Shown piece after piece: positions 835-10,143 of a DNA stretch of 64,000 nucleotides. Each line of letters opens with the position of its first letter. The stretch's first letter is position 1. The DNA is from Bdellovibrionales bacterium (GTDB lineage: Bacteria; Bdellovibrionota; Bdellovibrionia; Bdellovibrionales; DASUEL01), in assembly GCA_050250255.1 (NCBI GenBank), contig JBFWOZ010000001.1, positions 1 to 64,000 on the forward strand. The letters run 5' to 3'. Made by a program: the position numbers and the translations under genes. The notes beneath the pieces are model-generated. The model made no database searches and was not told where the DNA came from. It saw nothing but the letters and a program-made list of their open reading frames with translations.

Positions 835-941
835 GGTTGGAGGTTTGAGGTTTATCGTTTGAGGTTCGAGGTCTAGGTTTGAGGTTTGAAAACCTTAAAC
901 GGTACCCCAAACCTCAAACGATAAACCTCAAACCTCCAACC
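835..941. repeat. palindromic element built of GAGGTTT-type heptamers (32-bp perfect inverted repeat)
   Basis: 835-866 GGTTGGAGGTTTGAGGTTTATCGTTTGAGGTT is the exact reverse complement of 910-941; related copy at 38237-38384. Confidence 0.9.
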
Positions 942-1032
942 GAAACCGTCTCATAACAAGAAACTCTCGAAGCCCTCCTAAAACCAAAATTAAAAAATTA
1001 ACAATTAATTTCAAATACTTAACGCTTTGTGC

Positions 1033-1059
1033 TAAAGTTATTGCGCTATGCGCCGAAGA
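1033..1059 (+). promoter_or_regulatory. sigma28 (FliA) promoter of flagellin 1
   Basis: TAAA-N15-GCCGAAGA vs consensus TAAA-N15-GCCGATAA; implies TSS near 1066. Confidence 0.8.
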
Positions 1060-1146
1060 GTTCCATGACGGCTGATATGTTTTGAAAATTTAATTGTGGG
1101 CGACGACTGAATCACAGTCTCTTGATGAGACTTGAGGAGGTGTCCA

Positions 1147-1980
1147 ATGCCTTTACGTATTTCAACCAACCTGTCGAGCATTTCTGCTCAACGGCACTTA
1201 TCCAAATCCCAGGAGAGAGCGGAGCATTCCCTCAAAGCACTCGCTTCGGGTTCACGTATTGTGAGCGCGGGCGACGATGCGGCTGGGTTAGCAATCAGTG
1301 AGACGCTTCGTGGGCAACTCTCTGGTTTGCGCCAATCACGCATAAATGCTGAAAACGAAGTTTCTTTGATTCAGGTCGCTGAGGGTGGGCTTAACGAACA
1401 AAACAATATCCTTATTCGTTTACTCGAATTGGGAATTCAAGCGGCGAGCGATACTGTTTCAGACCGAGAAAGAGAATATTTAGATAAAGAATTCTCAAGC
1501 TTGGTGGAAGAATTAGATCGTATTGCGCTGACAACAACCTTCGGGAACAAAGCCCTTCTTCAAGGGACAGGGGAACAATTTGAATTCCAGATTGGACCTG
1601 ATAGTGGACCCGAGAGTGTTGTGAGTTATGTGCTTGATTCTGATTCGCGTGCTGACACTTTAGGTGTTGCGGGTCTTACGGTTGTGGATCAAAGTGATGC
1701 ACGTTCGAGTCTTTCGAGTATTGATGATGCGATCGATAGAATCTCAGAAATTCGTGCGGACTTTGGTGCTTTCCAAAGCCGCTTTCATGCAGCAGCTAGT
1801 AACTTGGATATTCAATATGAGAATATCGCTGCGGCTCGTGCTCGCATCTATGATGTGGACGTAGCCCATGAAACTTCGGAGTTATCTGCTGCGCAGATCA
1901 CTCAAGAGGCAGGCATCGCGGTTCTTGCTCAAGCGAACCAAATGCCGATGAGAGCCAGTCGTCTCATTAATCTGGTATAA
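1147..1980 (+). CDS. fliC: flagellin (fla1, more divergent paralog)
   Basis: MPLRISTN...LASGSRI..AGDDAAGLAISE N-terminus, VLAQANQ C-terminus; SD GAGGAGG at 1134-1140 before ATG 1147. Confidence 0.95.
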   Translation: MPLRISTNLSSISAQRHLSKSQERAEHSLKALASGSRIVSAGDDAAGLAISETLRGQLSGLRQSRINAENEVSLIQVAEGGLNEQNNILIRLLELGIQAASDTVSDREREYLDKEFSSLVEELDRIALTTTFGNKALLQGTGEQFEFQIGPDSGPESVVSYVLDSDSRADTLGVAGLTVVDQSDARSSLSSIDDAIDRISEIRADFGAFQSRFHAAASNLDIQYENIAAARARIYDVDVAHETSELSAAQITQEAGIAVLAQANQMPMRASRLINLV

Positions 1981-1993
1981 GAAACCCATCAAG

Positions 1994-2017
1994 AGGCCCC
2001 CCAAAAGGGGCCTTTTT
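1994..2017 (+). terminator. intrinsic terminator after fla1
   Basis: AGGCCCC-ccaaaa-GGGGCCT followed by T run. Confidence 0.8.
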
Positions 2018-2130
2018 CGTGAGCTCCGTCCCCAAAACCTAGACTTTCATCTAAATATTTTTTATTTGGCGTTTTTGAATAAAAACAAGCACAAGACGCA
2101 TCGCGCCCTAACTCCAACTAGACCTTTGGC

Positions 2131-2157
2131 TAAAGTTTCCTAGACCAAGGCCGAGAA
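2131..2157 (+). promoter_or_regulatory. sigma28 promoter of flagellin 2
   Basis: TAAA-N15-GCCGAGAA; implies TSS near 2164 and a ~200-nt leader. Confidence 0.8.
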
Positions 2158-2163
2158 GTTTCA

Positions 2164-2363
2164 TGAACACGTTGGAGCATCGGGAAGTAGAAACATATCA
2201 GCCGTCACTGAAATGTTTTTTGCTGACTGATCATTAAGTCAAAAAAAGCAATTTCGCTTTTCTCTTAATCTTCCAACAGACATTTTTAACGAGCTATGAA
2301 GGCACTCGCTGTAGGGCGCGGGTTTATGACACCAAGGATTTGGAACGTCAGTTGGAGGCTACT
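2164..2363 (+). promoter_or_regulatory. structured 5' leader of fla2 (antisense segments, anti-SD, CsrA-like site)
   Basis: Hairpin AAACAT-A-TCAG-ccgtca-CTGA-A-ATGTTT at 2191-2218; anti-SD 2270-2281; CCAAGGATTTGG at 2332-2343. Confidence 0.6.
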
Positions 2364-3188
2364 ATGGGCTTAAGAATTAATACGAATATCTCTTCGATCA
2401 ATGCGCAGAGACAGTTAGGAAAGCAACAGGCAAGAGCAGAGCATGCTTTGCAAGCGTTGTCTTCAGGAAGTCGAATCGTACAAGCAGCAGATGATGCCGC
2501 TGGTCTCTCGATTTCAGAAAACATCAAAGGACAAACTCGAGGTTTAAAGGCCGCACGCGGTAACGCCTACAACGCGGTTTCTCTCGTACAAGTTTCTGAG
2601 GGTGGTTTGTCAGAAATCAATAACATCTTAATTCGTTTACGTGAATTGGGTGTACAAGCAGCCAGCGATAACATTGGTGAAGTGGAACGCGGATTCCTCA
2701 ATCAAGAAGCGGTGCAGTTAGTACAAGAAGCGGATCGTATTGCGAAAACAACTCGATTCGGTAACAGAACACTTCTTGATGGTTCTGGAGAGCAATTAGA
2801 GTTCCACGTTGGACCATACGCCGGTGACGAAAACGTGATCAGATATCAAATCACAGCCGATGCAACAGGTGAAAAACTTGGTTACAATGGCATCACTGTT
2901 GATACAAAAGACTCAGCAAGACAGACGCTTGAAGCAGTGGACGAAGCATTAACTCAATTGGGTTCTATGCGCGCTGACTTCGGTGCCGTGCAAAGTCGAT
3001 TGAATACTACAGTGTCGAACTTAGACATTCAGTACGAAAACTTAAGTGCTGCGAACTCTCGTATCCGAGATGCTGATATCGCCTTCGAATCTTCAGAGGC
3101 CGCAGCAGCGACAGTACTACAAAACGCTTCGATCGGAGTTTTGGCTCAAGCGAACTCGATCCCATCGCAAGCTTTAAAATTATTGTAA
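2364..3188 (+). CDS. fliC: flagellin (fla2)
   Basis: MGLRINTN...LSSGSRIVQAADDAAGL; NLSAANSRIRDAD; SD GGAGG before ATG 2364. Confidence 0.97.
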   Translation: MGLRINTNISSINAQRQLGKQQARAEHALQALSSGSRIVQAADDAAGLSISENIKGQTRGLKAARGNAYNAVSLVQVSEGGLSEINNILIRLRELGVQAASDNIGEVERGFLNQEAVQLVQEADRIAKTTRFGNRTLLDGSGEQLEFHVGPYAGDENVIRYQITADATGEKLGYNGITVDTKDSARQTLEAVDEALTQLGSMRADFGAVQSRLNTTVSNLDIQYENLSAANSRIRDADIAFESSEAAAATVLQNASIGVLAQANSIPSQALKLL

Positions 3189-3197
3189 TAAAAGAGG

Positions 3198-3221
3198 CTC
3201 CTGCATCAGTGCGGGAGTTTT
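3198..3221 (+). terminator. weak terminator-like hairpin after fla2
   Basis: CTCCTGCA-tcag-TGCGGGAG followed by only four T. Confidence 0.55.
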
Positions 3222-3255
3222 CAAAAGTTAGATATGAACAAGTTATAAGATAAGG

Positions 3256-3372
3256 TAGCGCAAGAGTGAGCAACTAGGAAACGTCGTCGCCCACAAACCG
3301 ATGCAACTTAGTCACTCGAATGTTACTCTTAAGCCCACCCCGGCAGTGTCAAAGCTCCGGGGTTTTTTATTT
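3256..3372 (+). ncRNA. candidate small RNA or fla2 3' UTR extension carrying anti-fla1 and anti-fla2 segments
   Basis: Stem AAGAGTGA(3262-69)/TTACTCTT(3323-30) encloses GTCGTCGCCCACAA, which is antisense to 1094-1107; ends in a +strand terminator CCCCGG..CCGGGG-TTTTTT (3338-3368); 5' end uncertain. Confidence 0.55.
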
Positions 3373-4688
3373 TATGGAGTCGCGGTCGCGGCTTTTACTG
3401 CAGCACCCGTATTTAAATAACCACCCGTTAAAACTTTTCCTTCGAGTTTCGGTGCTTTGATAGCAGTTGCTAAAATAATATCTTTTACTTGTTTCCAATT
3501 GAGCTGCGGATTGGCGCTGTACATGAGTGCAATTGTGCCAGTGACGTGAGGCGCAGCCATAGAAGTTCCTGCAAGATGCTCGTAATAGTATCTGCGTAAT
3601 TGGGAGTGTGTCGGATTATAGGTGCTGTAAATGTGAATTCCTGGTGCAGCGATATCTACAGTTGTGGCGCCTTTGCTGGAAAACCACGTGAGATTTTGTT
3701 TGTTGGAATCAAGAGCGGCGACGCTGATGATGTTTTCGTTGTTATAAGATGCGGGATAAGACGGTGTTTTATCATTATCGCTGCTACTGTTTCCAGCAGC
3801 GGTGACAACAATTGTACCCTTATTTTTTGCATATTCGATGGCATCATAAAAAGTTTGGCTGTATCCATCGCCACCCCAACTACAATTCACCGCTTTCGCA
3901 CCCATTCTTGCTGCATAGAGAACGGTTTTGATTCCATTGTCGATGGTCCCAGATCCGTCTCTATCAAGAAACTTTGTATCTATCAGTGAAACAAGGCCGC
4001 TGACTCCAGAGATTCCTGAATTGTTATCATCACCCACGGCCCCTACGGTTCCACCTACGTGTGTTCCATGGTAATGAGTATCGATTGGGTTATTGATATT
4101 TCCTTCGAAGTTCCATCCGCGAACGTCATCAATAAAACCATTTTGGTCATCATCAATTTTATTAATCGCTTTATTGTTTCCGTTAGTATCTAAACCCATT
4201 TCACCAGGATTTTTCCAAAAGTTTTTCATGAGATCGCCATGGGTCCACATGCCAGTGTCAGAAATCGCAACGGTAATGTCGCGGCTTCCTCTTGTGATTT
4301 CCCAAGCTTCTTGAACTTTGATGGCATCTAATCCCCACATTCCCGTTGATGGGTAGGGGGGAGGAAGAAATGTAGGATCAAATTCTAACTCACCCGCTCG
4401 CACAACGTAGTTGGGTTCTACGTATTCAATGAGTTGAGATAACTCTGAAGCAAGTGGAGAATTTTTTGTCACCACAAGCGGATTTTTATTGGATACCAAC
4501 ACTTGCAACTCTGGAATTTCGGATTCTACCTCTACCCCTAAGCTATTGATAAAGCTTTTAGTACTCATTGCGGACACAGTATTTTTCAGTTTGATGAGAT
4601 ATCCACGATGCTCGAGAGAAGTTGCGTGAGTATTTATTGTGAAAGTGAGAAAAAGAAAAGAAGCGGCAAGCATTCCTAATCGGTTCAT
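3372..4688 (-). CDS. secreted subtilisin-like S8 serine peptidase
   Basis: VAISDTG, HGTHVGG, AAGN, GTSMAAPHV catalytic motifs; signal peptide after ATG 4688. Confidence 0.95.
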   Translation of the reverse strand: MNRLGMLAASFLFLTFTINTHATSLEHRGYLIKLKNTVSAMSTKSFINSLGVEVESEIPELQVLVSNKNPLVVTKNSPLASELSQLIEYVEPNYVVRAGELEFDPTFLPPPYPSTGMWGLDAIKVQEAWEITRGSRDITVAISDTGMWTHGDLMKNFWKNPGEMGLDTNGNNKAINKIDDDQNGFIDDVRGWNFEGNINNPIDTHYHGTHVGGTVGAVGDDNNSGISGVSGLVSLIDTKFLDRDGSGTIDNGIKTVLYAARMGAKAVNCSWGGDGYSQTFYDAIEYAKNKGTIVVTAAGNSSSDNDKTPSYPASYNNENIISVAALDSNKQNLTWFSSKGATTVDIAAPGIHIYSTYNPTHSQLRRYYYEHLAGTSMAAPHVTGTIALMYSANPQLNWKQVKDIILATAIKAPKLEGKVLTGGYLNTGAAVKAATATP

Positions 4689-4857
4689 GAACCCTCCGTG
4701 GCTCTTGATTTCTTTTAAGTTTATCATTTTCAAGAGTGAGGGTTTGTAATGTTTAAAAAGTGAGCACAAGAATCAGTCTAAGGACTTGGGGTCAGTTTGA
4801 TGCTGAGATGATCGTCTAGTTTAAGCACGACGTACATCGTAAGTTTATAGGTAAATT

Positions 4858-4884
4858 TTAAGTTATCTCTTTTTGAGTCGATAA
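4858..4884 (+). promoter_or_regulatory. sigma28-like promoter of the lipoprotein/beta-barrel pair
   Basis: TTAA-N15-GTCGATAA. Confidence 0.6.
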
Positions 4885-4941
4885 GACTTTATGCAAACCC
4901 TCTCATGCGGAGAGCGTTTTAAAGCCAAGGAGCGGCTTATT

Positions 4942-5910
4942 ATGAGTTTCAGTTGGAAGAAATTATTATCCAGCATAATTGCATTGCTGTTATGTGCTTG
5001 TGGTGGGACTCCGTCCGGAGCTCTTTATTATGGAGCGCTTGGTTTTGGTAAACCCAAAATTATTATTTCCAATGCTGACGCCACAGCTCCGGTTCAACAC
5101 ACAATCACAATGTATGATGAAAACGGGACTCTTCTTAAGGTGCTTGCGGACTACACAGATCTAGCAGATCGGCCCCGTGGTTTAACCCTGTGGGGTTCCT
5201 TTAGTTTTCTCGTTCCTATCGAGGGAACAGACCGCATTGATATTGTCGATATTTTTGGGGTGAGAAACACTTGGGCTACGAATGCGCAGTTTACGGGTAA
5301 TATTTTTAAGTCCGTGAATGACTCTAGTGGTAATGTGTATGTTATTGAGACTAATACAATTGAAAGATTTCTGGCGAGTGGAGAAAGAGCTCAGCAGTCG
5401 AGTGCGACTCCTTATATCGCAGCCACACTTGGTACCTGTGTTTTGAGCACACCACGTGGTATGGCGATTGCTCCAACGACCGGTTATTTGGTCGTTTCAA
5501 ATACTGGTAATGATCGAGTGAATATTTATAATGTGAATGCAACTCCCGCAACTTGCGTGAGTTTTAACTCGGCCTCGTACACAACTGCAGATCCATTGCC
5601 AATTCTCACGCATACGAATGGTTCTATGTACATAGGAACTCAAACCGCTGACCTAATTCGAAAAGTCAGTGCAGATGGTGTAACCGTCTCGACGGCTTGG
5701 AGTACAAGTTTGACGGTTATGGGTGATCCCACAGCGATTGCAGAGCTTCCCGATACAAATATTCTTGTAGCTTCAGATCTCACGGATTCAGTAGAAAGAT
5801 TTAGCCTTGATTCGACAGGAAACACTCTTACTCGCGTAGGTAGTGGACCTTTTATTAAGAATGCTTTCACAACTGCAGTTACTGAAATTTTGGTAATACC
5901 AGGAAAATAA
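4942..5910 (+). CDS. putative lipoprotein, beta-propeller (NHL-like) repeats
   Basis: Lipobox LLCAC; repeated PRGL/PRGM/PTAI blade-like motifs; SD AAGGAG. Confidence 0.6.
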   Translation: MSFSWKKLLSSIIALLLCACGGTPSGALYYGALGFGKPKIIISNADATAPVQHTITMYDENGTLLKVLADYTDLADRPRGLTLWGSFSFLVPIEGTDRIDIVDIFGVRNTWATNAQFTGNIFKSVNDSSGNVYVIETNTIERFLASGERAQQSSATPYIAATLGTCVLSTPRGMAIAPTTGYLVVSNTGNDRVNIYNVNATPATCVSFNSASYTTADPLPILTHTNGSMYIGTQTADLIRKVSADGVTVSTAWSTSLTVMGDPTAIAELPDTNILVASDLTDSVERFSLDSTGNTLTRVGSGPFIKNAFTTAVTEILVIPGK

Positions 5911-6576
5911 ATGAAGATTTCTTTTGGGCTTTTAACATTCGTAATTATCTTTGGACTTTTCAGTTCACAGATAGCTTTGGCTCAAAAATCGTCAAAAAAA
6001 GGCAATCGAGATGATCGTGGTTTATCAGCACAAGTAGATTTGGGTTTACCAACGGTGACGATTGAAAATCCAGATTCTTCAATTGCGTACTATACGGGTA
6101 TTGGTGTCACTGGAAGAGGTATTTTACCGTTATTGGATACTAGGTACTTCTCATTCAATCTTGTAGGTAATGCAAAATACTTAGATCTTAAGAACACAGC
6201 GAGTACGGCTTCGCAAAAAGAGATCGCTAACCACATTGGTGCTGGCGGCGGTGTGAGTGTCATGCTCTGGATTTTCTTTTACGGTATCGATTACAACTAT
6301 ATGTTAGCAAGACATTACACGGTAGGTACCTTTTCTCAGGAACTTAATTACAATTATACCTCAGCAGTTACTTATTACGGAGCACAAATAGAATTTGGTC
6401 AGCTTTCACTGGGAGGTGGCGTGAGTATGAACACAGCCACAATTTCGAATGGGGCCACGGACCTCAATATGGACTCACCTTATTCAGAAAAAACGTATTT
6501 CGTTTTTGCTCGCTATTCAACGGGACTGACAGTTCCCCGAATGTTCAAAGCCCTCTTCTCAGACGGCAAAAAATAA
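5911..6576 (+). CDS. putative outer-membrane beta-barrel protein
   Basis: Signal peptide; alternating amphipathic, Gly/Tyr-rich strands; starts immediately after the upstream stop. Confidence 0.55.
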   Translation: MKISFGLLTFVIIFGLFSSQIALAQKSSKKGNRDDRGLSAQVDLGLPTVTIENPDSSIAYYTGIGVTGRGILPLLDTRYFSFNLVGNAKYLDLKNTASTASQKEIANHIGAGGGVSVMLWIFFYGIDYNYMLARHYTVGTFSQELNYNYTSAVTYYGAQIEFGQLSLGGGVSMNTATISNGATDLNMDSPYSEKTYFVFARYSTGLTVPRMFKALFSDGKK

Positions 6577-6758
6577 TTACCACAACAAAGCTTCTGCGTT
6601 CTCGACTCGACTTTGAGTTGTGCAGACCAAGCGCCACCTCGACATTCATCTCATCAAATTCAACGATCTAAGTCTGGTTTTCCCAAACCTACGTCTAGCT
6701 TTTCCTCTGCTAAAGTCTAGTTTCCCCTCAACAAAAGTCCAGATTCACTGGATCAGAC

Positions 6759-6785
6759 TTTAGTCACTCTCGACCTCGCCGAAAG
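6759..6785 (+). promoter_or_regulatory. sigma28-like promoter of flagellin 3
   Basis: TTTA-N15-GCCGAAAG; weaker -35; implies TSS near 6792. Confidence 0.55.
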
Positions 6786-6985
6786 GTTTGGTGTGAGTGC
6801 TGAGAAAACAGCAGCTGAGTGAGAGACGATCTTGACGGAGAAGCTCTCAACAAAAACTCAAATGCTGATTCAAAGTCTCCAACGTGTTTAACAAAAACTT
6901 AGCGCAGGATGCGTAGTCAAATTCGTTCTCGGAGGGGTCTGAGAGCAATGACGGAGAAAGTATTCTCTCAAATGAGGAGGATAAA

Positions 6986-7819
6986 ATGGGTTTCAGAATT
7001 ACGACGAATGTATCGTCAATCAATGCGCAGAGACACTTCGGCGCGAGTCAGAGAGAGATCACAAAAAACTTCGCACAGTTATCATCTGGTAGCCGTATTA
7101 CAAAGGCGGCAGACGATGCAGCAGGATTAGGGATTAGCGAAGGATTACGAGCTCAAATTCGTGGATACGGTCAAGCAAAGCGAAATGCTGCAGATGCCGT
7201 TTCCTTACTTCAAGTTTCTGAAGGCGGTATGGGCGAAGTGAGCAATATCCTCACTCGATTGCGTGAACTCGGTGTTCAAGCCGCTTCTGATACAGTGGGT
7301 GATCGTGAAAGAAATTTCATTGATAAAGAAGTACAGCAACTCAAAGCAGAATTACAACGTATTGCGGAATCGACCCGTTTCGGATCAACAAAACTTCTTG
7401 ATGGATCTGGTGGAGTTTTCGATTTCCAAGTGGATATTAACAATAACGAATTTCAAGATAGAATTTCTTTTAATGCCGGCGCACAAAATGTGACTACGAG
7501 CCAGTTGGGCATTGAAGGCTTAGACTATAATTCCAAAGAGGGCGCTCAAACAGCTCTTGAGACAATCGATGCGGCTCAAGTTCAAGTGAACTCGTACAGA
7601 GCAAACCTTGGTGCGATTCAAAATCGATTGTTCTCCACGCAAGAATATTTGGGAATTGCAGAAGAGAATTTGTCAGCTGCAAACTCTCGAATTCGAGATA
7701 CTGATATCGCTCAGTCAACGGCCGAGCTCACTCGCAATAACATTCTCATGCAAGCAACAACAGGTGTGTTGTCTCAAGCGAATGCGATGCCGAGCATGGC
7801 GCTTAAGTTGATTGGTTAA
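6986..7819 (+). CDS. fliC: flagellin (fla3)
   Basis: MGFRITTN...LSSGSRITKAADDAAGL; RANLGAIQNRL; SD GAGGAGG. Confidence 0.97.
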   Translation: MGFRITTNVSSINAQRHFGASQREITKNFAQLSSGSRITKAADDAAGLGISEGLRAQIRGYGQAKRNAADAVSLLQVSEGGMGEVSNILTRLRELGVQAASDTVGDRERNFIDKEVQQLKAELQRIAESTRFGSTKLLDGSGGVFDFQVDINNNEFQDRISFNAGAQNVTTSQLGIEGLDYNSKEGAQTALETIDAAQVQVNSYRANLGAIQNRLFSTQEYLGIAEENLSAANSRIRDTDIAQSTAELTRNNILMQATTGVLSQANAMPSMALKLIG

Positions 7820-7848: not shown

Positions 7849-7910
7849 TAGACCAGGTACTTATCCTCCCTGGTCTAACCCAGCCCGGAGACATTGTTTC
7901 CGGGATTTTA
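7849..7910 (+). terminator. anti-SD-loop hairpin followed by terminator hairpin after fla3
   Basis: TAGACCAGG-tacttatcctc-CCTGGTCTA (7849-7877), then CCCGGAGAC-att-GTTTCCGGG-atttt. Confidence 0.65.
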
Positions 7911-8364: not shown

Positions 8365-8452
8365 TACAGGTTTCTAGGATGCGGGAATCCAGGAATACGG
8401 TATTCTGGAATAACTACTGAATCCCTGTGTTCCGATATCCAGAAAACCTGTA
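8365..8452. repeat. imperfect palindrome with ~8-nt GGAATCCA-like periodicity (copy 1)
   Basis: TACAGGTTTCTAGGAT...ATCCAGAAAACCTGTA; similar to 10045-10143. Confidence 0.7.
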
Positions 8453-8522
8453 TTCATATAAGACATTCCTTTTCGTTTTTCTCGAAAATAAAGTTACTTT
8501 GAGTCAAACATCCATGCCTGTG

Positions 8523-8611: not shown

Positions 8612-9115
8612 CTAATGACTATGCGTTAATCGGTGATGGCCCGCACAAAGGGTGGCAAGATTCTCAAAAGTGTCTTGCCCTCCCTTGCTTTTCGGGATCA
8701 CGTGATGGGTGTGTAGCCATTTTCTTTCTGTGCAACGTACACCTTGTGGATTTTTATATGTGCACTGACCCTGATCACGCCGTTGAACCTGTCTTAAGAC
8801 AGGTTGGTGGGCTCTATGCATCAATTTTACAGCTTTCTGTACAGGATCTTTCTTCTCTAAATAGACATCCAGCAAGGCCTCAAAAGTTTCCTCAAAGTTT
8901 ACATTTTTTTGTTGGCGCTGGGATTCTAGTTCTTGAGCACGTTTGAGTTTTAGGCTCACGACTTCAGAAAATCTAAAATTTCTTTTACATCGAAGATGTA
9001 AGTACACGCGATGCTCATCGACTTGTTGAAGAATATCGATTAGATCACTCTCGGACTTGCGAAATCGTCCAGCTACTTCGAGAGCTTTTTCGTGAATTTG
9101 CATATGTTTTGTCAT
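8612..9115 (-). CDS. HNH endonuclease, probably internally deleted
   Basis: RDQGQC..C..LHTHHVIPKSKGG..ENLATLCAGHH HNH motif. Confidence 0.8.
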   Translation of the reverse strand: MTKHMQIHEKALEVAGRFRKSESDLIDILQQVDEHRVYLHLRCKRNFRFSEVVSLKLKRAQELESQRQQKNVNFEETFEALLDVYLEKKDPVQKAVKLMHRAHQPVLRQVQRRDQGQCTYKNPQGVRCTERKWLHTHHVIPKSKGGQDTFENLATLCAGHHRLTHSH

Positions 9116-10044: not shown

Positions 10045-10143
10045 TACCGGTTTTCTAGGATACCGGAATCCAAGAACACGGTTATCCGGTAGTTATTCGG
10101 GATAACATGTATCCCTAGATTCCTGTATCCCCGAAACCCAGTA
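10045..10143. repeat. imperfect palindrome with ~8-nt periodicity (copy 2)
   Basis: GGTTTTCTAGGATACCGGAATCCAAGAACACGGT resembles 8369-8401 GGTTTCTAGGATGCGGGAATCCAGGAATACGGT. Confidence 0.7.

Follow-up and report, generated by a model that had tools for sequence, protein, structure and literature searches.

The leader of the flagellin gene fla2 is a conserved RNA element that probably acts as a translational OFF switch, thrown in trans by the mRNA of a second flagellin gene, fla3. It is very likely that the element exists and that its complementarity to the fla3 leader reflects genuine pairing, on the grounds of conservation and of covariation between the two genes; the two folds of the switch and the direction in which it moves come from folding models. 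Both genes lie in the window, by which we mean the whole stretch of 64,000 nucleotides that was analysed, together with a third flagellin gene, fla1, which may take part in a wider network of contacts.

Flagellin genes and promoters of the window

The window holds three flagellin genes and the whole genome six flagellins. A flagellin tree built with 33 relatives of the same order resolves six groups.

1033-1059, + strand: sigma-28-type promoter of fla1, start predicted at 1067
1147-1980, + strand: fla1, flagellin of 277 aa
2131-2157, + strand: sigma-28 (FliA)-type promoter of fla2, from sequence and kept in orthologues, start predicted at 2165
2364-3188, + strand: fla2, flagellin of 274 aa, FliC1-type
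3337-3368, + strand: terminator-like hairpin and U run after fla2, from sequence and fold, absent from the listing of the consensus scan
6760-6785, + strand: sigma-28-type promoter of fla3, start predicted at 6793
6986-7819, + strand: fla3, flagellin of 277 aa, FliC2-type, with flaG, fliD and fliS downstream

Judged by length, pI and gene pairing, fla2 appears to be the counterpart of FliC1 (274 aa) of Bdellovibrio bacteriovorus and fla3 that of FliC2, with fla1 a paralogue that has no counterpart among the six flagellins of that species. The predicted start of fla2 borrows its spacing from the mapped start of Bd0606, as given in the supplement to PMC3627812. At the three promoters and those of their orthologues, each group of flagellins is marked by conserved words of its own, both within the sigma-28 spacer and upstream of it, a hint of group-specific activators that could set the order of transcription.

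Other features of the region deserve mention. After a PilZ-domain gene and upstream of fla1 lies a long imperfect inverted repeat of short repeated units (829-945). Similar repeat-like sequences (8378-8460 and 10050-10140) surround an HNH-like ORF (8612-9115, minus strand) and a peroxiredoxin-like ORF, both labelled by eye and inserted between flaG and fliD. Among the relatives, fla3 is duplicated in tandem in G005, G008, G017, G026, G029 and G036, the second copy lacking the trigger site described below and usually having a short leader. A contig titled as a Streptomyces griseus MAG (L169) carries fla1- and fla2-type flagellins with a fla2-type leader and is probably mis-binned.

A leader with a constant order of parts

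The fla2 leader can be divided as follows.

2165-2170, + strand: 5' toehold, unpaired in the MFE fold, covarying with the fla3 site
2171-2177, + strand: 5' arm (anti-anti-SD), with 2271-2277 or the fla3 leader as partner
2179-2231, + strand: hairpin H1, in which 2191-2207 is complementary to the 5' end of the fla1 mRNA
2233-2269, + strand: hairpin H2, whose loop is complementary to a loop of the fla3 leader in most relatives and is lost in the window
2270-2281, + strand: anti-SD, followed by an A/U-rich linker
2332-2343, + strand: small hairpin with GGA in its loop, from sequence and fold, candidate CsrA site
2347-2358, + strand: SD-containing strand, with GGAGG at 2354-2358

Relatives keep the same order of sigma-28 promoter, toehold, arm, at most two hairpins, anti-SD, A/U linker, variable 3' domain and SD, and in one of them (G027) the leader is reduced to toehold, arm, anti-SD and SD within 63 nt. 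The linker after the anti-SD is 73% A/U, against 52% for the leaders overall. The GGA in the loop at 2332-2343 resembles the CsrA-binding motif, and we take it to be a putative site. An Rfam scan of the 64 kb returned no match at or above the gathering threshold (one irrelevant match, E = 4.6, in 900-7100), and among its results there were no T-box features and no known aptamers. The conserved loops of the leader are accounted for by RNA partners.

Such a leader precedes the FliC1-type gene in 29 of the 34 flagellin-bearing genomes of the order. The leaderless cases are four genomes of one family with a divergent gene (G002, G014, G024 and G033); in the incomplete genome G001, no FliC1-type gene was among those fetched. 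A search of the species collection with a promoter-plus-arm pattern matched 88 loci. A FliC1-type gene adjoins the match at 75 of them and no flagellin does at 11; the named loci with an adjoining flagellin are almost all Bdellovibrionota. Since the pattern fixes the arm, the 67 loci added in this way were selected for it, and kin are not independent. Excluded before counting were G001, the four genomes with a divergent nearest gene, loci duplicating a genome of the order set, two loci with no call of the anti-SD motif (L121, L153) and two with a doubtful one (L167, L175); G026, G035 and L145 were left out of the pair tallies.

In a 44-row alignment, the arm:anti-SD helix together with H2 is paired in 82.9% of cells, against 70.8% after shuffling, with a covariation of 0.388 against 0.183, and it beats slid registers. 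Double changes lie nearly all within H2, the only helix that RNAalifold recovered from a MAFFT alignment; arm:anti-SD itself is 89.6% paired, with only five double-change cells. A covariance model found one copy in its own genome, matches in 16 of 30 other genomes of the order and one weak match in 120 other genomes of the phylum. Since it also missed two genomes that do bear the leader (G010 and G022), its misses elsewhere do not show absence. Of three weak model matches in the own genome, two were considered as further copies and discarded, both being inside coding genes on the opposite strand.

Two competing helices in cis

A sequence-only reading of the window had proposed that the SD is masked by an anti-SD, which a 5' arm can take up instead. 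The pairings it named are present: 2270-2281 pairs with 2347-2358 at 11 of 12 positions (one G-U, one A.A mismatch), 2171-2177 with 2271-2277 at seven of seven (one G-U), and GTTGGAG occurs at 2171 and 2351, with a third copy at 836. The continuation that it drew between 2182-2193 and 2252-2262 has to be dropped; the helix can be drawn, but its probability is 0.000 and it clashes with H1 and H2, which relatives keep.

In the folded ensemble the two remaining helices compete, with probabilities of 0.55-0.67 for arm:anti-SD and 0.32-0.44 for anti-SD:SD when the transcript starts at 2164-2166, and of 0.14-0.64 and 0.36-0.85 with other fold boundaries. The same reading had named, beforehand, an SD unaffected by blocking the arm as the result that would speak against it; in the models the mean unpaired probability of the SD falls from about 0.20 to 0.01-0.02. 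With the arm forced unpaired, the opening energy of the SD in the window rises from 4.05 to 7.03 kcal/mol (+2.98), compared with -1.25 to +1.07 for eight control blocks. In the modelled ON state of the window the SD is still about 80% paired.

Over 96 leaders the arm block gives a median shift of +0.69 kcal/mol (56 above +0.5, 12 below -0.5), against -0.02 for 762 control blocks, and it is the strongest of its leader's blocks in only 28. The reduced leader of G027 shifts by +6.2 kcal/mol, yet its MFE fold hides the SD with or without the block. Among 92 leaders the block moves the anti-SD:SD probability up by more than 0.2 in 13 and down in 1. In about one third of leaders, L115, L118, L132, L141 and G039 of the genus Bdellovibrio among them, the models bring the anti-SD into no contact with the SD and the shift stays close to zero. 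The automated placement of the SD was wrong in several leaders, such as G029, G032, G040, L146 and L187. When free, 43 of 92 leaders hide the SD in equilibrium models and only 15 of 92 form arm:anti-SD with a probability above 0.5. The size of the switch is therefore uncertain, and the ON state would rest on the order of folding and on ribosome loading, which lie outside the scope of these models; it may be kinetic.

The anti-SD:SD duplex of the window is within chance, being equalled in 195 of 2000 dinucleotide shuffles, and so proves little on its own. Across 92 leaders, the anti-SD binds its own initiation region at -12.85, against -10.79 +/- 0.22 for the initiation regions of others, and covers the SD in 89. 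The own fla2 site is the best anti-SD match among the genome's flagellins in 16 of 28 genomes (5.3 expected). At one genome per family this covariation is modest, with a median p of 0.028 and 69% of draws below 0.05. Over 77 distinct pairs, the arm:anti-SD core counts 406 Watson-Crick, 31 G-U, 2 A-C and 23 other cells. The proposed switch of SD, anti-SD and anti-anti-SD stands in so far as conservation, compensatory change and folding models point to mutually exclusive anti-SD helices, the hallmark of a translational riboswitch; its OFF outcome is a modelled one.

Predicted pairing in trans with the fla3 leader

The site that would trigger the switch lies upstream of fla3.

6877-6889, + strand: trigger site of the fla3 leader, able to form 13 bp with 2165-2177, one of them G-U

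The sequence-only reading had suggested this leader as an occupant of the arm, and conservation, compensatory change between both genes and folding models back it. In the window one of 2000 shuffles pairs as well as the fla3 leader does. Among 27 testable genomes gathered without bias, 25 carry a complement of toehold and arm in the fla3 (FliC2-type) leader at a cut-off of -18 kcal/mol or better, as do 34 of 35 pattern-selected loci. The site is missing in G026 and L145; a hidden partner in G026 and G035 was considered and rejected, the remaining flagellins there being C-type and without the site. Cognate pairs reach a mean of -23.2, against -17.3 +/- 0.6 when permuted (none of 20000 as good), and the upstream regions of other paralogues give medians of only -11.5 to -13.6 with the arm. 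The signal holds at one genome per family (12 families; p < 0.05 in all 300 draws).

The 590 cells of the trans core (59 genomes by 10 columns) hold 572 Watson-Crick pairs, 17 G-U, one G.A and no A-C, a bias that argues for pairing as RNA and against an inverted DNA site. Ten variant arm sequences are known from this set, with up to five of ten bases changed and still matched in the partner gene: eight are compensated in fla3, one is kept by G-U and one is mismatched. In G003, G016, G023, G025 and G040 a different contig or the opposite strand carries fla3, so that the pairing is in trans. The conserved complementarity is between two mRNAs with separate promoters. In Hfq/ProQ-dependent regulation of the FlaX or FliX type the regulator is a dedicated sRNA; the trigger here is located in the fla3 leader, and either the full mRNA or a released fragment may deliver it.

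When the two leaders are folded together, the trans duplex and anti-SD:SD both reach a probability of 1.0, with the fla2 SD hidden and the fla3 SD unchanged. We infer from these patterns that the two messages pair in vivo and that translation of fla2 would be reduced as a result. Reciprocal activation of fla3 by the fla2 arm was not seen among 59 genomes (median +0.03 kcal/mol, 11 up, 7 down), and no strand in fla3 matches the anti-SD so as to open it. A second contact is possible in 47 of 55 genomes, where the H2 loop matches a loop that precedes the fla3 site, exactly in 44 and with compensated variants in three; four of the 55, the window included, have neither loop and four have only one.

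The 3' element of fla2, which had been offered as another ligand of 2164-2183, did not hold up. It is equalled in 361 of 2000 shuffles, and over 81 genomes its cognate energy is -15.12, against -15.02 when permuted. Its conserved partner is the fla1 leader.

Further predicted contacts among flagellin mRNAs

The untranslated regions of the three genes hold further complementary segments.

1066-1082, + strand: 5' end of the fla1 mRNA, 17 Watson-Crick pairs with 2191-2207 in H1
1094-1107, + strand: site in the fla1 leader for the fla2 3' UTR, by complementarity
3283-3296, + strand: segment of the fla2 3' UTR complementary to 1094-1107 of the fla1 leader
3327-3337, + strand: segment of the fla2 3' UTR complementary to the fla2 start region (2365-2375)
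7861-7869, + strand: loop of the fla3 3' UTR complementary to its own SD region (6976-6984)

Among 66 pairs of UTR regions drawn from the six paralogues only four stand out, every one involving fla2, and no contact with FliC3-, FliC4- or FliC5-type UTRs did. The match of the fla1 5' end to the fla2 leader is not equalled in any of 2000 shuffles of the window, and no other place in the genome matches the site better than these 17 bp, once the opposite strand of the site itself is set aside. The pairing with H1 covaries in 53 of 56 genomes (-27.4 against -18.5 +/- 0.4), and the H1 site is absent in all six genomes without a fla1-type gene, an instance of co-loss. As a second OFF trigger fla1 binding was judged weak and set aside (a median of +0.18 over 53 genomes, 20 rising and 8 falling; +0.12 in the window). 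A fla1 co-fold did give the OFF state, but through extra pairing into the fla1 coding region that we consider untrustworthy.

In the other direction, the fla2 3' UTR pairs with the fla1 leader at -31.8 against -24.7 (n = 50). In the models, occupation of that site lowers the opening energy of the fla1 SD in 25 of 31 relatives, by a median of -2.3; the window is not among these relatives and the figure comes without matched control blocks. The start region of fla2 is itself constrained: just two forms of the first 12 coding bases account for 81 of 96 orthologues, and these bases are far more fixed than in paralogues. The hairpin loop of the fla3 3' UTR displays an anti-SD that matches the gene's own SD, with a cognate energy of -12.4 against -10.7 (n = 45). 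Relatives have another segment of this UTR that matches a loop in the fla3 leader. The fla2 3' loop against the 3' domain of its own leader is borderline (512 of 10000).

A published trace in Bdellovibrio bacteriovorus and RNA-related factors of the genome

APsRNA3 of B. bacteriovorus HD100 is listed in PMC3627812 as a 128-nt attack-phase RNA (561,854-561,981) with a FliA promoter, beginning 276 nt before fliC1 (Bd0604). Compared by eye with the published coordinates and sequence, it stands before fliC1 and contains the arm, the H2 loop variant CAATCAC, the anti-SD and an A/U tract in that order. Its published 5' end falls within the predicted toehold, which counts against the proposed switch. 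On the likeness of position and motifs, the 5' domain of the fla2 leader is APsRNA3, published and uncharacterised, and the element is transcribed in the model species. By the coordinates of the same paper, APsRNA4 is the 3' UTR of fliC1. In the portions of PMC3627812 consulted, both figure as independent sRNAs of the attack phase, with neither a function nor homologues beyond the species; the text connects them with no anti-SD, no partner RNA and neither of the genes fliC1 and fliC2, and fliC1 is absent from the table of start sites. Abundances are given there as 14,726 RPKM for APsRNA3 and 11,984 RPKM for Bd0604.

Genes for CsrA, FliW, RNase III and RNase E/G are present. Neither Hfq nor ProQ had a match in this 99.2% complete genome, and RNase J had none either. 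On contig C4 csrA adjoins fliW, and ANGGA motifs are frequent in the leaders of flagellin groups C, E and F (means of 1.4-1.9 per leader, against 0.2-0.8 in A, B and D), which together suggest CsrA-FliW control of the C, E and F flagellins. None of the sequencing runs covering 1000-3400 of the window is listed as RNA. The open literature, most subscription papers being outside its scope, gave no account of the leader or of pairing between Bdellovibrio flagellin mRNAs.

Alternative explanations

The pairing could be real and have its output in processing or decay, with the 5' domain cut or terminated in the A/U-rich linker to yield a free sRNA or a sponge, or with the duplex directing RNase III or RNase E/G. 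That APsRNA3 was called a separate sRNA ending in an A/U tract, by a pipeline that threw out UTRs joined to genes (PMC3627812), favours release or processing. The A/U content of the linker, the presence of both nucleases and the weak modelled shift of the SD in leaders of the genus Bdellovibrio point the same way. Against this, APsRNA3 and Bd0604 are similarly abundant in the published table, release alone leaves the covariation of the anti-SD with the SD flank unexplained, and shielding of the 5' end as in hly-prsA2 is improbable because RNase J has no match. We hold this output to be unlikely as the main one; it can coexist with a translational switch. Less likely again is a leader that is OFF by default and opened by other means (ribosome capture during transcription, a protein, tertiary contacts), so that the fla3 duplex would only lock the OFF state or bring the mRNAs together. 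The many free leaders predicted to hide the SD, the greater stability in the window of anti-SD:SD (-13.2 kcal/mol) than of arm:anti-SD (-7.3 kcal/mol) and the presence of CsrA and FliW are what it has in its favour, but a constitutive OFF state would have no need of an arm:anti-SD helix conserved across the order, and no fla3 strand is there to open the leader by matching the anti-SD.

It is very improbable that the conserved words are protein sites on RNA, of a CsrA-like kind, or inverted copies of a DNA-binding site, with complementarity as a by-product. GGA does occur in the arm and at the SD, the genome has csrA and a DNA site may have either orientation. The asymmetry of 17 G-U to no A-C in the trans core is not expected of a double-stranded site, however, and arm variants at up to half of the ten positions are matched in the partner gene, GGA is missing from arm variants, the sites lie downstream of the transcription starts and the H1 site disappears with fla1. 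Chance complementarity in a structured leader, to which the shuffles of anti-SD:SD alone would lend some colour, is contradicted by the comparative tests and by the concentration of the outstanding region pairs on fla2, and its probability is negligible. A translational switch triggered by fla3 is the reading that we retain.

Proposed mechanism and comparison with known systems

During synthesis of the leader, the first partner of the arm (2171-2177) would be the anti-SD (2271-2277). Their helix would close a junction that includes H1 and H2 and leave six 5' bases free as a toehold. As the alternative partner of the anti-SD, the arm would lower the modelled cost of opening the SD. The fla3 leader would then dock on the toehold, in most relatives also by a kiss between the H2 loop and its own, and displace the anti-SD through the 13-bp duplex. 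In the models the released anti-SD pairs over the SD and would hide the ribosome-binding site, and the effect would be one-way, the fla3 SD being unchanged.

Translational riboswitches and T-box leaders share a platform of SD, anti-SD and anti-anti-SD, and the ligand of the T-box is an RNA. The fla2 leader differs in having no aptamer or T-box features and no Rfam match, its proposed ligand being an mRNA read by strand displacement. Synthetic toehold repressors and the antisense refolding of pT181-type plasmids combine a toehold or loop kiss, strand displacement and downstream refolding, as proposed for fla2; the fla2 system is natural and trans-encoded, with a partial complement from a separate gene in place of a cis antisense RNA.

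FlaX of Vibrio cholerae, as described in PMC11879080, is alike in that an RNA pairs at several sites of the 5' UTR of one flagellin, represses it and so alters the composition and timing of the filament. This sRNA is bound by ProQ and itself masks the SD and standby sites (PMC11879080), whereas the regulator of fla2 would be the leader of another flagellin acting about 180 nt upstream by refolding, and neither ProQ nor Hfq was found in the genome. In hly-prsA2 of Listeria and irvA-gbpC of S. mutans one coding mRNA also pairs in trans with another, and hly binds the extreme 5' end (PMC8722363), as fla3 would at fla2. By that account, those pairs are single contacts between unrelated genes that protect from RNase J and leave access to the SD unaltered; fla2 and fla3 are paralogues that pair leader to leader in a predicted translational switch, in a genome with no RNase J match. 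The 5'-3' UTR pairing of icaR in S. aureus (PMC7821165) has its like in the fla2 and fla3 3' UTRs, complementary to their own initiation regions, though here such self-contacts are combined with contacts between mRNAs. The modelled element would work like an sRNA-triggered anti-SD switch and fits no described family, its regulator being the leader of a paralogue amid covarying contacts.

Implications for the flagellar filament

The flagellins of B. bacteriovorus are placed in the filament in the order FliC3, FliC5, FliC1, FliC2, FliC6, and the paper that mapped this order offered no mechanism (PMC2791853). With FliC2 after FliC1, the switch would pass synthesis on from the FliC1 block to the FliC2 block that follows it. 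More tentatively, and with the odds somewhat against it, a chaperone-free relay of flagellin mRNAs might alone time the blocks in Bdellovibrionales. By kissing and toehold displacement, the FliC2-type leader would shut translation of the FliC1-type gene. The FliC1-type 3' UTR would make the SD of another flagellin accessible, and the 5' end of that message would act back on the FliC1-type leader, while every 3' end would silence the message to which it belongs as soon as transcription is complete.

The switch would help to account for the ordered placement of multiple flagellins in blocks. Known cases of regulation between mRNAs are few and act on stability. The proposed switch is a model at the level of base pairs in a genetically tractable predator. 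If true, it would give a role to two orphan sRNAs and provide a natural toehold switch read by the mRNA of a paralogue.
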